Below are positions 6,001 to 15,000 of a stretch of DNA of 64,000 nucleotides, piece by piece. The stretch's first letter is position 1; every line of letters starts with the position of its first letter. Source of the DNA: Kiritimatiellia bacterium (GTDB lineage Bacteria > Verrucomicrobiota > Kiritimatiellia > RFP12 > JBMNHG01). The stretch spans positions 568,654 through 632,653 of the forward strand of contig JBMNHG010000002.1 in assembly GCA_050950285.1 (NCBI GenBank), in the 5' to 3' direction. The position numbers are program-made.

Positions 6001-9000
6001 TTCCATCGAGCCCGAAGGAGGTCTCGCGCCCCATGTTGCCGGAGACGATGCGGCAGAGGCGGTCGGGGCGGCGCGCCGCGGCGAAGGCGATGCCGAGGTC
6101 GATGGCGGCGGAGAGGACGAGGCCCTCGTTGTAGTCCGTGTGGTTGCCCAGCACCTCGATGCGGCCGGGGGCGTACGCCGCGGCTTCCGGCGCCCGTCCG
6201 AAGGCGCCGGTGAATCTGGCGAGGGTGGATGCGATGAGCCGTCCGGAGTTTTCGGTGGTGTCCATGGCGGGGGTTCCTGGGATCAGCGGGGTTCGGGAGC
6301 GGTGCGTTCGATGGCGAGCGCGGTGCGGGCGGGGAGGTATACGCGGATGAAATGGCGGAGCTCGCGGCCGATGGTGCGGGCGGTGCAGGGGTAGTCCTGC
6401 CCCGGGGCGATGCGGGACTGGCCGTCGTAGGCGGCGGCGTCCGTGTCGAGCACGCCGCGATAGCGGCCGGGCGCCACCTCCACGTCGAAATCGGCGAGGG
6501 AGTCGGAAGGGTGGAAGTTGAAGAGGAAGAGCATCGAGGCGCGACGGAAGACGAGCACCTTCGCGGCGTCGTCCGCCAGCAGCAAAGACGGCGCGCCGCT
6601 TTCGAGCGTCCGGCGGCGGGACAGCGCATGGAGCATGTCGCGGTCGAACTCCGCGAGCGCGTGGAAGCGCAGGGCGGGGTCGTCGCGCAGGTGCCACTGG
6701 CGGCGGGCGTAGCGGTAGGAGAAGGCGTTGCCTTCGCGCGGGAAATCCACCCATTCGGGATGTCCGAACTCGTTTCCCATGAAGGCGAGGTAGGCGTGGC
6801 CGGCGGTGGCGAGGGTGGCGAGGCGCGCCATCTTGTGCAGGGCAACCGCCCGTTCGGCCACGGGCGAAGGGACGCCGCGCGCCATCGCGCCGTAGATTTC
6901 GGCGTCCATCATCTGGAAGAGGAAGGTCTTGCCGCCCACGAGGGCCTGGTCGTGCGATTCCACGTAGCTCACCGTGCGCTCGTCGGCGCGGCGGTCCACG
7001 AGCGAATGCCAGAGGAAGCCCATGGACCAGTCGTCGTCCCGGATGTCGCGCACGAGCTTGAACCAGGCCTCGGTCACGCCCATGGCGAGGCGGTAGGAGA
7101 AGCCGGCGCCGCCTTCGCCGGGCGGGGCGGCAAGCCCCGGCATGCCGCTCACGTCCTCGGCCACCGTGATGGCGTCGGGCCGCACGTCGTGGATGACCTG
7201 GTTGGCGAGGCGGCAATAGGTCCAGGCGTCCTCGTCCACCCGATCGTCGAAATACTGGCCGTAGTGGACGAAGTCCACGCCGAGGCCGTGGTGGAGGTAG
7301 AGCATCGAGGTGACGCCGTCGAAGCGGTAGCCGTCGAAGTGGAACTCGTCGAGCCAATAGCGGCAGTTCGAGAGCAGGAAGTGCAGCACGGGCGTCTTCC
7401 CGTAGTCGAAGCAGCGGGAGTCCCACGCCGAGTGCCAGCCGCGCGGGCCGTCGTGGAAGTATTGGTGCGGCGTGCCGTCGAAGAGCGAGAGGCCGTCGCG
7501 TTCGTTCCGGACGGCATGGGAGTGCACGAGGTCCATGATGACGGCCAGGCCGAGCCCGTGGGCGTCGTCCACCAGCGCCTTGAGCTCCTCCGGCGTGCCG
7601 AAGCGCGACGAGGCGGCGAAGAACGACGACACGTGGTATCCGAAGGAGCCGTAGTAGGGGTGCTCCATCACGGCCATGAGCTGGATCGTGTTGTAGCCGG
7701 CGTCGGCGATGCGCGGGAGGATGTTCCGGCGGAACTCGTCGTAGGTGCCCACGCCCTCGCGCTCCTGGGCCATGCCCACATGGGCTTCGTAGAGGAGCGG
7801 CGCGCGGTCCGCGGGCACGCGGAAGTCCGGATGGCGCCAGCGGTAGGGCTCGGGCGGATCCCAGACCTGCGCGGAGAAGAGGTGGGTCGAGGCATCCTGG
7901 ACCACGCGGCGCGCATAGGCGGGGATGCGCTCGCCGCGGCCGCCGTCCCAGGCGACTTCCAGGCGGTAGTGCCGGCCGTGGCGGAGGGCGTCCGCCGGGA
8001 GGCGGATTTCCCAGTCGCCGGCGTCGCCCGGCAGGCGTTGCAGGGCGAAGCGCGGTTCCACCCGCCATTCGCTGAAGTCCCCCACGAGCGCGATGGCCGT
8101 GGCGTTGGGCGCCCATTCGCGGAAGACCCATCCGCCGTCCGGCGCGCGGTGGAGGCCGTAGTATTCGTGGGCGCAGGCGAAGCCGGCGAGCGAGCCGGGG
8201 CCGCGCGCCAGTTCGGCGGCGCGCAGCACGGCGAGCTCCTCGCGGCGGCGCAAGGCGCTGCGGAAGGGGTCGAGGTACGGGTCGTCGGTCAGTCTGGCGA
8301 TAGAAGGAGGCATCGGGGGGGAGTATACCCCAAGAAAAAGCGGCGCGCCGCATTTTTTCCAGGGAAATCTGAAATCGCGTGGTCCGCTACGATGCGGCGG
8401 CGTCTTTCATGGCCACGAGGTTTTCCCAGGGGACTTCGGGTTCGACCATGTGGGTGGGGCCGACGACCAGGCCTCCGGCGTCGCCGCAGAGCCGGATGTT
8501 TTCGCGGACGGCGGCCTTCACCTCCTCCGGCGTGCCGAAGGGGAGGAGCCTCTGCGTTCCGATGGTTCCCCAGAAGGAGAGCTTCCCCGCGGCTTCGCGC
8601 ACGACATCCGCGAAGGCCATGCATTCGGGCTGGACCGGGTTCAGGATGTCGACGCCGATTTCCGCGAGTTCGCCGAGGAAGGGGGCGACGAATCCGCAGG
8701 AGTGGTAGAACACGAGCAGGTCGGGACGGACGGCGCGGGCGGCGTCGATCACGCGCGCCAGGCGCGGCTTGAGCCACGTGCGCCACAGGTCCAGCCCCAT
8801 CATCGTGGTCTGCTGCATGCCGATGTCGTCGCCCAGCTGGAGGATGTCGGCCCCGGCGCGGGCGCAGGCCCCGGCGCGGGCGGCGGAGAGGGCCGTCACG
8901 CGGTCGAGCAGGACGGTGGCGCGGTCGTCGCCGCACATCATGTCCACCATCAGATCCTCCATCGAGCGCAGGTACCAGGCGGTTTCCCAGACGGTGCAGG

Positions 9001-12000: not shown

Positions 12001-15000
12001 TATCGCGGATCCCTCCAAGGATTTTGTTGTACATTAGGATACAGGAAACGGCGCGCCAGGGGAAGCACGGAATCGGGCGGGCGGCATCGCCCGGACGCGG
12101 CGCGGCTGTGGCGGCGGAAAGAAGGGGATTGACGCCTGCGCGGATTCTGCGGTATCGTACATCGCGTTTTGCCAACATAGCTCAGCTGGTAGAGCGGCGC
12201 ATTCGTAATGCGCGGGTCGGTGGTTCGAATCCACTTGTTGGCTCCAGTTTCCAAGGCCTCGCGGGCATGTCCCCGCGAGGCTTTTTGGGTGTCCGGATGT
12301 CGGGAAGCGGCGGGAACGGCGTGCCGTTCACGCCCAGACGGGGGGGAGGCCCAGGCGGGCGAGCTTGGCATCCAGCTCGCGGCTTTCGCGGCCCTTGCGG
12401 AGGGCGCCATCCTCGGCGGTGGACACCCACTTCCACTCGCGCTGGAGGGCCTGCGCGGCCTCGCGGTCGCCCTTGGCCATGCGGTTGACCTGCTCCAGGT
12501 CGAGGCGGGAGAGTTCCATCGAGGCGAGGCGATAGTCCTGGAAGGCCTCCCAGGCGAAGGGCACCCAGCGCGCGACGATCTCGTTGCCGATGGCCTCGGC
12601 GTATTCGCGGATCTCCAGTTGCGCATGGGGGGTCATGCGGAGTTCGAGGAAGTGCAGCAGGTTGTGGAGGTCGATCTTCCAGTACGCCTCGGTATAGGTC
12701 GAAAGGGGCAGGTCCTTTCGGGCCTGTTCGCGGGCGACGCCGATGGCCAGTCGTGCTTCGTAGGTGTCGCGGGCCATGCGATGGAGCACGGATTCGCTCT
12801 GGGTGAGGATGGCGCCCGTCTCGTCCGGAAGGAAGCCGCCGCTGCCCTGGCGGTTGTCGGTGGACTGTGCGCGCCAGGCGTCGGGCGAGGTGCGTTGCGC
12901 GGCGTCGATGGCGACGGAGTAGCGGGTGGAATATTCGTTGACGCTCGCCGTGCGGTGGCGCACCCACTGCCGCCAGCAATCCATCGGGGCGCGGATGTGC
13001 AATTTGATCTCGCACATCTCGAGGGGGCTCGTATGCCGATGGCGGAGGAGGTAGCGGATGAGGCCGCGGTCCTGGGAGATTTGCTTGGTGCCCGCGCCAT
13101 AGGAGACGCGCGCGGCCTGGACGATGGCGGCGTCGTTGCCGAGATAGTCCACGGGACGGACGAATCCGTCGTCGAGCACGGGGATCCGGGCGCCGAGGAT
13201 GGCGTCCAGTTCGGGTGCGCTGGCACGGGGGGCGGGAAGGTCGGCCGGGAGGGAGGGATCGTTTGCCATGGTGAAAGTCCAATTCGAGTCGGGGACACGA
13301 TACCACACGGACGCGCCGCCCGCAATCGCAGGGACGCGGACGATCCCATTGCCGTTGACGTCCTTGGCGGGGATGTGCCACGATGCGCTTCCGACATGAA
13401 AACCCCCTTCTTCCGCCCCTGGCGGCTTTTCCTTCCCGTCTGCCTTGTCTTGTCCGCTTCGTTCGCCTTCGGCGTGGAGCTGCTGGCGCCTTCGGCGGCG
13501 CGGGTCCGGGCGATTTCCGCGGGGAGCGGCACGCCCCGCGCGGTCTTCCGGGAGGGTGCGTACCGTCTGCCGCTCGCGATTCCCGACGGCGCCGACCGCA
13601 TCTACTGGGACATCCCCTTCTCCGCGCCGCTTCCCCCGGGCGCCACGGTGCTGGTGCTCGACCTTTCCATGCCGTCGATTCCGGGGCAGGTGCGCAGCTT
13701 CTCGCTTCATGTGAAGTCCGGCAAGGGCTGGTACCTTTATCCGGACAGCCTCTCGCCGCAGGCAAGCGGGAAGTTGAAGATTCCGCTCCCGATGTTCAAG
13801 CCGGAAGGGACGCCGGGTCCGCTTTCCGCCATCACCGCCATGCGGATCTCCGCGTGGCGCGATGCCGGCTTTCGCGGCAAGCCGCTTGCGGACGCCTTCC
13901 TTTCGATCGCATCGGTCGCCGCCTTTTCCTCCCCCATCGCCATCGTGAAATCCACCGACGCGACCGCCCCGGGCGAGACGGCCTTTGCCGGGCGGATGGC
14001 CGATCGCAGCCTCCGCGCCTTCCTGCGGGCGGGATACGCGCCCGCCCTCGTGGATGACACCTTCGCCGATCTCCCGGAGGCGAAGCTGCTCGTGCTTCCC
14101 TACTCGCCGAAGCTTTCGGACGCCGCCGCGAAGAGGCTGTGCGCCTACGTGGCGAAGGGCGGGAAGCTGATGGTCCACTACAGCGCCTCGGCCCCGCTCG
14201 CCAGGCTCTTCGGCATCCATACGCCGGTCTGGGGGCAGGGTCCGGGCAAGGAGGGCTATTCGGCGATGGTGGCGTCCAGGGGCGTTTCCCCCGCGGAAGG
14301 CGGCGAGGTGGTCCCGCACCGGACCACGAGCGTGCTCCTCCCGCGCCCGTTGAAGGGGTCGAAGGCGGGCGTGCGGGCCGTCTGGCTGGATTCGCGCGGG
14401 AACACCACCGGCGATCCCGCCTGCGTACTCTCCGATGCGGGGGCCTGGTTCGCGCATGTGCCGCCGCTCCCCTCCCCTGCCGCCGCCGGCCTGTTGCGCG
14501 GGGTGGTCCGCAGTGTCGCGCCATCGATCCTCGCCCTTCCCCTGGACCATCCGCGTCCGGCGCGGCTGGTGGCGGCCGTGCGCCCCCATCGCGAGATTCG
14601 CGGCATCTGGTTCCCCTCGCCGGCGGCGTGCCATCCCAAGGGCTGGGACGGGCTCTTCGCCGACCTCGCCTCCACGCGACTCTGCAACACGGCGTTCATC
14701 CGCCTGCAATCCTCCGGGACCGCCCTCTACCCCAGCGGCGGGAAGCTGCCGGAGCGTCTCCCGGGCGGCGCGTCCCGCGTGGAGGACATCGTCGCGGCAG
14801 GCCGCAAGCATGGAATCGCGGTGCACGCCTGGACGGTGTGCTGGGATGCTTCCGAAGCCGCGGATCTCCCGCGGCTCCGCAAAGAGGGGCTTCTGATGAA
14901 GGACGAAAAGGGGAAGGAGGTCCCCTGGCGCTGCCCCGACCATCCCCGGAACGGCGCCGAACTCCAGGCCGCGATCCTCGATGCCGCGGCGCGCGGCGCG

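Follow-up and report, generated by a model that had tools for sequence, protein, structure and literature searches.

The window is a stretch of 64,000 nucleotides from the genome (99.35% complete) of a Kiritimatiellia bacterium, an anaerobe that lives on polysaccharides. It carries a three-gene run whose last member encodes a protein of the URO-D/MtaA fold:

6283..8313, minus strand: CBM48/alpha-amylase protein (glycogen branching enzyme-like, Pfam), directly downstream of the URO-D gene
8387..9454, minus strand: URO-D/MtaA-fold protein of 355 aa, candidate substrate:corrinoid methyltransferase (MT1) (Pfam PF01208, E 1.4e-23)
9477..11447, minus strand: glycyl-radical enzyme (GRE) of 656 aa (Pfam PFL-like and Gly_radical), GCYE and ISGYS motifs intact
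11444..12001, minus strand: open reading frame of 185 aa without family, overlapping the GRE start (ATGA)
12171..12246, plus strand: tRNA-Thr(cgt), divergent, upstream of the three-gene run

The GRE gene lies 22 bp upstream of the URO-D gene on the same strand, confirming the arrangement given in an earlier note on this DNA, and a purine-rich ribosome-binding site precedes the URO-D start. This spacing would suit two genes that function as a pair, an explanation that is barely credible and largely refuted by absent conservation. In another genome of the same genus (G001) the orthologues of the GRE (73%) and of the URO-D protein are found on different contigs, the latter behind an unrelated gene and in a gene order scrambled relative to this genome; no GRE cluster recurs in 80 loci of URO-D orthologues, and the genome holds eight GRE genes. 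The window GRE is below every NCBIfam cut-off (best 204 bits against 678, other models far under) and, though it adjoins the URO-D gene, is probably not part of the corrinoid system. The CBM48/alpha-amylase gene is not kept beside orthologues of the URO-D gene, and for the 185-aa reading frame there were no Pfam matches and no homologue was found.

A divergent family of UroD-fold proteins

Sixteen Pfam URO-D matches and a seventeenth gene at C2:74426 make up a family of 17 genes encoding 324-406 aa, the number and size reported previously, which an iterated HMM raises to 23, the 22 others being scattered outside the window. On our own alignment the 17 proteins average 20.2% identity per pair instead of the roughly 25% stated in the earlier note, whose counts for the H-x-C-G motif (present in 11 of 17, absent in six) are reproduced. 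Across the order, 46 of 151 genomes have a URO-D match, in agreement with the at least 86 of 318 given before. The window protein belongs to the UroD/MetE superfamily by a Pfam match over the cut-off and by its barrel fold (predicted model, pLDDT 96.9). Its sole sequence match in the PDB is MtaA (4ay7, E 5.9e-8), which Foldseek also matches to the model (E 2.8e-15) and which gives Z 27.2 and an rmsd of 3.4 over 301 aligned residues in a VIA structural comparison; HemE fits the fold as well as MtaA does (Z 27.2, rmsd 3.3-3.4, 301-307 aligned). The protein is nevertheless below all NCBIfam cut-offs, reaching 60 bits against 235 with the MtaA/MtbA/CmuA models, for which the best paralogue scores 137 bits against 244. 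Identity with HemE was rejected, as the hemE equivalog TIGR01464 gives at most 54.5 bits against a cut-off of 303 with any paralogue scanned, and ALAD and porphobilinogen deaminase (HemC), already noted as missing, were looked for in the genome and not found.

The alignment places a putative metal site of the window protein at H251, C253 and H335, with D209/D210 and Q275 (invariant columns). Across the 17 paralogues the third-ligand residue is His in seven, Asp in four, Asn in four, Cys in one and Gly in one, and a (D/E)D pair occurs in 14. According to a published ligand rule, His-Cys-Cys marks S-methyltransferases, and O-methyltransferases swap one or both Cys for a carboxylate or for non-coordinating residues (10.1101/2023.07.31.551370). 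The commonest third residue here, His, is unnamed in that rule and matches HemE. A thiol-type His-Cys-Cys site is kept only in the paralogue at C3:441711, and membership in MtaA/MtbA (MT2) or mlp by such a zinc site was rejected, the third Cys being present in only one of the 17. A metal site unlike that of thiol methyltransferases is thus supported at the level of aligned residues. Zinc, the metal named in the earlier note, is a putative assignment; some characterised UroD-family MT1 enzymes are described as free of zinc (PMC13222342).

Association with corrinoid proteins

Full-length orthologues of the window protein (44-54% identical) adjoin corrinoid or RACo genes in Bacillota (L204, L211, L302), Bacteroidota (L178, L191) and Lentisphaeria-type loci (L218, L225). 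The lack of a conserved neighbourhood in relatives, a caveat raised earlier, therefore does not extend to orthologues in other phyla. Corrinoid and RACo genes are each found in 6 of the 80 window-orthologue loci, and relatives of 5 of the 23 paralogues have corrinoid operons; in two subfamilies examined in depth, none of 81 and none of 78 relatives lie near corrinoid genes. Within the order, RACo is present in 43 of 46 URO-D-positive against 11 of 105 URO-D-negative genomes, and a stand-alone corrinoid protein in 37 of 46 against 2 of 105. Every genome of the order in which URO-D is expanded has a RACo match, a corrinoid match or both, and two genomes (G036, G075) have corrinoid and RACo without URO-D. 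Hosts of window orthologues carry RACo in 45 and a corrinoid protein in 46 of 50 cases (50 of 80 loci tested), and in Bacteroidota the figure for RACo is 16 of 20 compared with 14 of 201 in the order. For hosts of a His/Cys-less (DTDG) paralogue the values are 50 of 50 and 46 of 50 (again 50 of 80 loci), against a RACo background of 52 of 201 in one host class.

The predicted complex of the window protein with the corrinoid protein of this genome has a score of 0.81, the best of three controls having 0.01. It thereby passes a mark that 116 of 157 solved pairs, and 2 of 215 mismatched ones, attain. At least 95% of contacts are shared between runs, the pLDDT of the partners is 92 or higher and corrinoid residues 98-101 belong to the interface. 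Because solved barrel-corrinoid complexes exist (PMC9842639), this result, which covers one paralogue, may reflect likeness. The operons of relatives, the co-occurrence with RACo, the predicted complex and the metal site support the view that the paralogues work with the single corrinoid protein. The window gene very probably encodes a corrinoid-dependent methyltransferase, which likely works in the demethylating direction, and most of its paralogues are probably corrinoid methyltransferases too.

Activator and methyl sinks

The candidate partners are all encoded outside the window:

C6:213986-214612: corrinoid protein with B12-binding domain
C3:656995-658869: RACo, the only copy in the genome
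C6:116288-117313: pterin-binding methyltransferase (NF005719, 175 bits, under the cut-off of 259)
C6:90205-91053: homocysteine methyltransferase
C6:114424-116262: homocysteine methyltransferase
C6:362938-364680: FTHFS

The corrinoid protein (208 aa) is the one stand-alone form among five B12-binding matches, so the single small corrinoid protein and the one RACo described earlier are both there; CobS is also present. The same description had listed a missing MtrH-type methyl-THF methyltransferase as a weakness. The search for MtrH confirmed its absence (0 of 21), but the genome does encode a pterin-binding methyltransferase; CdhD and MetE were not found in this genome. Separate PF02574, PF00809 and PF02607+PF02310 proteins, together with RamA-like and DUF1638 proteins and the absence of PF02965, constitute a split methionine synthase of the Phaeobacter type, of which the pterin-binding and the two homocysteine methyltransferases are the methyl sinks. 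Since the corrinoid protein and RACo also belong to this system, their presence alone proves nothing. All four components of a corrinoid O-demethylase (MT1, corrinoid protein, MT2 and activator) are encoded, with the MT2 candidate under the NF005719 cut-off. A type 1 mlp gene cluster, which needs two or more Mlp genes in one co-directional group with corrinoid and Ram genes, was rejected, the components all being scattered in the genome.

A possible sugar link

In this genome GH30, GH43 and GH2 genes are direct neighbours of URO-D genes, GH130 is two and a DUF1638-hydantoinase gene three genes off, all as previously described. Their use as support for a sugar reading falls away, because GH genes account for 3 of 34 direct neighbours (four with the glycogen branching enzyme) against 5 of 93 genes from nine regions picked at random (Fisher p 0.44), a chance frequency that gives no evidence for a sugar substrate; nor are they kept in relatives (GH43 in 0 and GH2 in 1 of 80 loci). 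In orthologue loci of Bacteroidota and Bacillota, which are not independent of one another, 32 of 121 genes directly beside the orthologue encode a GH, a sulfatase, an esterase or a sugar-type transporter, compared with 6 of 78 genes five places off (p 0.0008), a signal that leans on one related Bacteroidota symporter cluster. AraC regulators make up 20 of the 121 against 1 of the 78, and glycosidases counted by themselves show no significant enrichment (12 of 121 against 3 of 78, p 0.17). The neighbours include GH2, GH29, GH31, GH43, GH89, GH95, symporters, RhaT and AraC regulators, with no characterised methyl-sugar enzyme among them. The DTDG paralogue family forms an operon with GH4 (24 of 80 loci), a Gfo-oxidoreductase (47) and a beta-propeller protein (36), and a corrinoid gene in none of the 80. 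The battery of O-methyl-sugar demethylases proposed earlier thus stands as regards corrinoid methyltransferases and loses the glycosidase neighbours it had cited; a sugar substrate is plausible, with roughly even chances, from orthologue neighbourhoods in other phyla.

Alternative explanations

Every corrinoid observation would fit MT1 enzymes that draw methyl groups for methionine and C1 metabolism from non-sugar donors such as methoxylated aromatics (ferulate, lignin fragments set free along with plant glycans), amines or methyl sulfides. Characterised UroD-family MT1s are reported to demethylate aromatics or haloalkanes, one acetogen having 20 paralogues (PMC13222342), and two paralogues in this genome are flanked by esterases. 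The glycosidases, transporters and regulators beside the orthologues point away from such donors, no aromatic-catabolism family recurs among the neighbour clusters and the absence of a His-Cys-Cys site in 16 of 17 argues against S/Se substrates; we regard this reading as unlikely, if still to be reckoned with. The reverse, MT2-like direction, in which methyl-corrinoid would serve acceptors such as thiols or cell-surface glycans, is suggested by the nearest solved relative being the MT2 MtaA and by a pterin module that could supply methyl-corrinoid. It is very improbable, given that one paralogue of 17 has the thiol-type ligand set and that the genes nearby are for catabolism and uptake rather than for glycosyltransferases.

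The paralogues might instead be mostly metal-dependent sugar-processing enzymes (lyases, hydratases, isomerases or decarboxylases), leaving the corrinoid set to methionine synthesis and one MtbA-like copy. The GH4/Gfo/URO-D/propeller operon devoid of corrinoid genes, a cluster in G042 with six URO-D matches amid dehydrogenases, aldolases and a kinase, the loss of H-x-C in six of 17, the fold tie with HemE and the two genomes with corrinoid and RACo alone would all agree with this. Against it, hosts of that very operon have RACo throughout, no URO-D expansion in the order goes without both corrinoid and RACo matches, and the window protein is predicted to dock on the corrinoid protein and has orthologues in corrinoid operons, so that this explanation appears improbable.

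Proposed mechanism

The preferred reading, for which the odds seem about balanced, is that the window gene and most paralogues are MT1 enzymes loading a shared corrinoid protein, a good share of them from O-methylated polysaccharide sugars. As orthologue neighbourhoods suggest, glycosidases would free the methylated sugar and a symporter would take it up. RACo and the DUF1638 domain, whose genes are present and whose function is known for homologues, would hold the corrinoid in Co(I). At an O/N-rich metal site the barrel would bind the oxygen of the methoxy group, and the methyl group would go to Co(I); the site comes from the alignment, the docking is predicted and the chemistry we infer. The methyl group could then pass to homocysteine or THF via the split methionine-synthase modules, a presumed flux through genes that are present. 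Because CdhD was not found, excess methyl-THF may be oxidised towards formate through MTHFR and FTHFS, and the freed sugar would enter normal catabolism.

Relation to known systems

The overall architecture is already known from MtgBCDE and the O-demethylases, the sugar substrate being the conjectural part. MtgBCDE of Ruegeria pomeroyi and the split methionine synthase of Phaeobacter inhibens are described as likewise having corrinoid, pterin and homocysteine modules on separate proteins, RamA/RACo, DUF1638, scattered genes, several MT1 paralogues on one corrinoid protein and no MetH reactivation domain (PMC12478193; 10.1101/192971). Their MT1s are given there as MttB-family proteins (PF06253) of aerobes that act on betaines, seven at most, whereas the present fermenter has 17-23 UroD-fold copies and its relatives show glycan-linked neighbourhoods. 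OdmB, VdmB, MtvB, MtoB and CdmBCA share with the present system UroD-superfamily MT1s, a corrinoid protein, an MT2 to THF, an activator and large paralogue sets, and are reported to act on aromatic methyl ethers or haloalkanes in acetogen or methanogen hosts (PMC13222342); the likeness is one of superfamily and component set, and CdhD was not found here. MtaA/MtbA and the type 1 mlp clusters have the fold and H-x-C motif in common, and mlp clusters likewise join several paralogues, a corrinoid protein and Ram/RACE (10.1101/2023.07.31.551370). In contrast, here the His-Cys-Cys site is down to one of 17, scores are far under the NCBIfam cut-offs, the genes are unclustered, a THF methyltransferase candidate is present and the neighbours are glycan genes, not S/Se genes. 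HemE shares the fold and the His at the third position, and differs in the haem-pathway genes not found and in the absence of any hemE model near its cut-off.

Corrinoid methyltransferase genes in a glycan-fermenting anaerobe are also described for Bacteroides thetaiotaomicron, whose 'Mta' proteins BT_0340, BT_0342 and BT_0343 are annotated as methylamine methyltransferase proteins (PMC8941943). As a control, the B. thetaiotaomicron genome gave no RACo match. We take BT_0340, BT_0342 and BT_0343 to lie beside glycosidase genes. The P450 carbohydrate demethylases do the job proposed here, the unblocking of O-methyl sugars, but depend on oxygen and are unrelated in fold (PMC6292453).

Implications

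More broadly, and somewhat short of even odds, the large and so far unannotated UroD-fold radiation may be a B12-dependent sugar O-demethylase toolkit built on split methionine synthase in polysaccharide degraders of many phyla (PVC, Bacteroidota, Bacillota, Chloroflexota, Armatimonadota). Tentatively, as parts of the same joint proposal, each subfamily could serve one methylated monosaccharide, including the His/Cys-less members with a carboxylate-only site, and the toolkit could be the anaerobic counterpart of the P450 sugar demethylases, turning glycan methyl groups into methionine and formate. O-methylated sugars block glycan catabolism, and their demethylation in anaerobes was described in 2025 as not elucidated and without a candidate gene (PMC12316285); the URO-D families supply candidate genes. 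If the proposal is true, thousands of 'uroporphyrinogen decarboxylase' genes would receive a new annotation, and the breakdown of plant and algal fibre in guts, sediments and digesters would become linked to the supply of B12; were the substrates aromatics or amines, this would be a known system with a wider host range. For one subfamily, 2787 of 7998 scored candidate proteins reach E<=1e-30, and cultured hosts of the families include Pontiella sulfatireligans F21, Eisenbergiella tayi DSM 26961, Claveliimonas monacensis DSM 108991 and Merdimmobilis hominis An559.

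Probable corrinoid use by the URO-D paralogues

The protein of the window that belongs to the uroporphyrinogen-decarboxylase (URO-D) family is one of many paralogues in the Kiritimatiellia bacterium, and the use of a shared corrinoid protein by at least some of them is well supported by four lines of evidence, namely operons, co-occurrence within the order, controlled co-occurrence and a predicted complex. Orthologues of the window gene directly adjoin genes for corrinoid proteins, for the reductive activator of corrinoid proteins (RACo) or for DUF1638 proteins in Bacillota, Bacteroidota and Lentisphaeria-type loci, which allays the concern of the earlier note that relatives might lack a conserved neighbourhood. 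One of these operons includes a homocysteine methyltransferase that is 47% identical to that of the genome under study. Across the collected loci, a biased sample in which some contigs occur twice, 5/23 paralogues have relatives within 3.5 kb of corrinoid, RACo or DUF1638-type genes. In two subfamilies examined in depth a corrinoid gene is nearby in 0/81 and 0/78 relatives, which counts against corrinoid use.

Within the order RACo is present in 43 of the 46 URO-D-positive genomes versus 11 of the 105 URO-D-negative ones. It also occurs in 16/20 Bacteroidota hosts of the window orthologue versus 14/201 genomes of one host's order, and in 50/50 hosts of a His/Cys-less paralogue versus 52/201 in one host class, both comparisons covering 50 of 80 loci and including related, non-independent hosts. 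The predicted complex of the window protein with the corrinoid protein of the same genome scores 0.81 versus 0.01 for the best control, with a contact agreement of at least 95% and a partner pLDDT of at least 92, and so passes a mark that is reached by 116/157 solved pairs and 2/215 mismatched pairs. Because barrel-corrinoid complexes have already been solved, as the available part of PMC9842639 describes, this pass may stem from likeness to them.

Size and nature of the URO-D expansion

The count of 17 URO-D genes in the earlier note is borne out, as a PF01208 search of the genome (4.05 Mb, 99.35% complete) gives 16 matches and the seventeenth exceeds the Pfam cut-off when scanned as a whole protein; an HMM iterated with sequences of relatives enlarges the superfamily to 23 genes. 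Mean identity among the 17 paralogues is 20.2%. ALAD and porphobilinogen deaminase were looked for in this genome and not found, and none of its paralogues approaches the hemE cut-off; they are thus not haem enzymes. The expansion is not unusual for the lineage, since URO-D occurs in 46/151 genomes of the order, one of which has as many as 97 first-look candidates.

The six additional superfamily genes missed by the Pfam genome search (C3:356076, C3:126917, C8:600428, C2:149226, C8:353441 and C2:97982) carry the motifs YGCC[DE]/WGCCE, HCCG or HLDG, and relatives of C3:356076 are found in corrinoid operons. One locus of a relative (L083, G042:C12:22001-42000) holds six URO-D matches, one of them a fragment, within a single co-directional cluster together with short-chain dehydrogenases, a KDPG aldolase, a PfkB kinase and iron alcohol dehydrogenases.

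Active site

MtaA is the sole PDB sequence match of the window protein and the top Foldseek match of its model (pLDDT 96.9), while VIA places MtaA and HemE in a tie. Among 138 aligned sequences H335 is nearly invariant, and H251, C253, D210 and Q275 are fully so; the counterpart of H335 is the third Cys in MtaA and a His in HemE. The H-x-C-G motif is kept in 11/17 paralogues, the same count as reported before, a (D/E)D pair in 14/17 and the third Cys in only 1/17. According to the available part of Kountz and Balskus (10.1101/2023.07.31.551370), His-Cys-Cys is the signature of the S-methyltransferases of the superfamily, and its O-methyltransferases replace Cys by a carboxylate or non-coordinating residues. 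Given this rule, the rarity of the third Cys argues against thiol chemistry, which does not in turn prove O-demethylation or zinc; the related substrate-side methyltransferase (MT1) CdmB is described in the accessible text of PMC13222342 as working without zinc.

Corrinoid machinery and methyl sinks

The single stand-alone corrinoid protein and single RACo of the earlier note were both recovered. A stop inside the RACo match, common to many relatives, was rejected as a gene break, the model overrunning the end of an intact 624-aa gene. A pterin-binding methyltransferase gene adjoins a homocysteine-methyltransferase/MTHFR fusion, and the genome also encodes a further homocysteine methyltransferase that stands on its own, together with a DUF1638 fusion and FTHFS. 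Searches of this genome for MetE, the MetH reactivation domain and CdhD found none of them, and with CdhD a Wood-Ljungdahl methyl sink was rejected. The earlier worry over MtrH was justified as to the protein itself (0/21 genomes) and mistaken as to a missing sink, as pterin-binding and homocysteine methyltransferases are present; the pterin-binding protein fills the MtrH role. No B12 riboswitches were detected in the window or in the four loci scanned.

The corrinoid, pterin and homocysteine modules form the same set as the split methionine synthase of Phaeobacter, as outlined in the available part of 10.1101/192971. The methyl sink is therefore no longer missing, but methionine synthesis offers a housekeeping explanation for the corrinoid set, one supported by two relatives (G036 and G075) that possess corrinoid protein and RACo and have no URO-D. 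The closest working precedent is Ruegeria, where, in the portion of PMC12478193 available, the same modules also serve several MT1 enzymes of the MttB family as methyl acceptors. An architecture of many MT1 enzymes, one corrinoid protein and a split methionine synthase is already known, and the assignment of the present set as a corrinoid system is well supported.

Across the order, the corrinoid query matches mostly within frames of about 800 aa or longer (fused, MetH-like) in URO-D-negative relatives, whereas the protein is free-standing in URO-D-positive ones, which suggests that MetH splitting and URO-D expansion went together.

Candidate substrates

Glycoside hydrolases (GH) beside the paralogues had been cited as evidence for sugars. 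In this genome 3/34 direct neighbours of URO-D genes are GH versus 5/93 random genes (p 0.44), and even the same-genus genome has a different gene order, so that this evidence, at chance and not conserved, was set aside. Lineages in which operons persist say more about the substrate. Across 25 Bacteroidota and 38 Bacillota loci, with categories counted by hand from Pfam tables, glycosidases, a sulfatase, an esterase or sugar-type transporters account for 32/121 direct neighbours versus 6/78 genes five places off (p 0.0008), AraC regulators for 20/121 versus 1/78, and glycosidases alone for 12/121 versus 3/78 (p 0.17). Two clusters, a symporter and a GH2 one, turn up beside window orthologues in 14/80 loci each, and in Pontiella sulfatireligans the orthologue is followed by a PL8 lyase, GH29 and a sulfatase. 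Naming the substrate through the co-operonic GH2 was abandoned, as it led only to distant beta-galactosidase/glucuronidase structures and unnamed homologues.

The simplest reading of a corrinoid methyltransferase that shares its regulation with glycosidases and monosaccharide uptake is that of a candidate sugar demethylase. The odds that the paralogues act on sugars are about even; aromatic methyl ethers freed together with plant glycans are possible substrates as well. The best lead toward the identity of a substrate is an operon, conserved across several phyla, around a His/Cys-less (DTDG-class) paralogue:

L319-L398, relatives of C11:257308-258417: divergent AraC, GH4, Gfo/Idh/MocA oxidoreductase, DTDG-class URO-D, FG-GAP beta-propeller

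AraC is found in 26/80 of these loci, GH4 in 24/80, the oxidoreductase in 47/80 and the propeller in 36/80; the genome under study has neither the propeller nor a close Gfo/Idh/MocA oxidoreductase. Here the URO-D protein could also perform a step other than methyl transfer alongside the oxidoreductase.

The sugar-demethylation reading is directly testable. An anaerobic route is called undiscovered in the available part of PMC12316285, and no report of corrinoid-dependent sugar demethylation was found in open-access papers and preprints, a scope outside which lie subscription papers and preprint supplements, the latter of which could list related clusters. The accessible parts of publications on Kiritimatiellales or lake MAGs do not mention this system.

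The window genes and their surroundings

8387-12001, minus strand: three co-directional genes encoding a 185-aa ORF, a 656-aa glycyl-radical enzyme (GRE) and the 355-aa URO-D-family protein
11444-12001, minus strand: the 185-aa ORF, translationally coupled to the GRE

Sequences closely homologous to the URO-D protein carry the labels Kiritimatiellia, Lentisphaeria and Verrucomicrobiota. The 185-aa ORF has no family and no atlas match, is present once in the genome and lacks homologues in the other loci examined. The GRE retains intact Cys and Gly motifs, matches no characterised GRE family and has close orthologues in 2/60 relatives. The earlier note had listed it among the neighbours; since the two orthologues are unlinked in the same-genus genome and no GRE recurs among 80 loci of window URO-D orthologues, a functional pairing was rejected and the adjacency is treated as chance.

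The genome has eight GRE genes versus only two activating enzymes above the TIGR02494 cut-off, and one GRE gene on contig C8 has a CobS gene immediately upstream; another relative (G022) has three tandem GREs. Elsewhere in the window, four 51-bp tandem repeats that are nearly identical (98% matches) occupy the intergenic stretch 1855-2058 between two genes, and long coding-repeat arrays of 78-bp and 87-bp units (Cys-rich and Gly-rich) span 45115-56388 in large minus-strand genes, which probably encode surface proteins.
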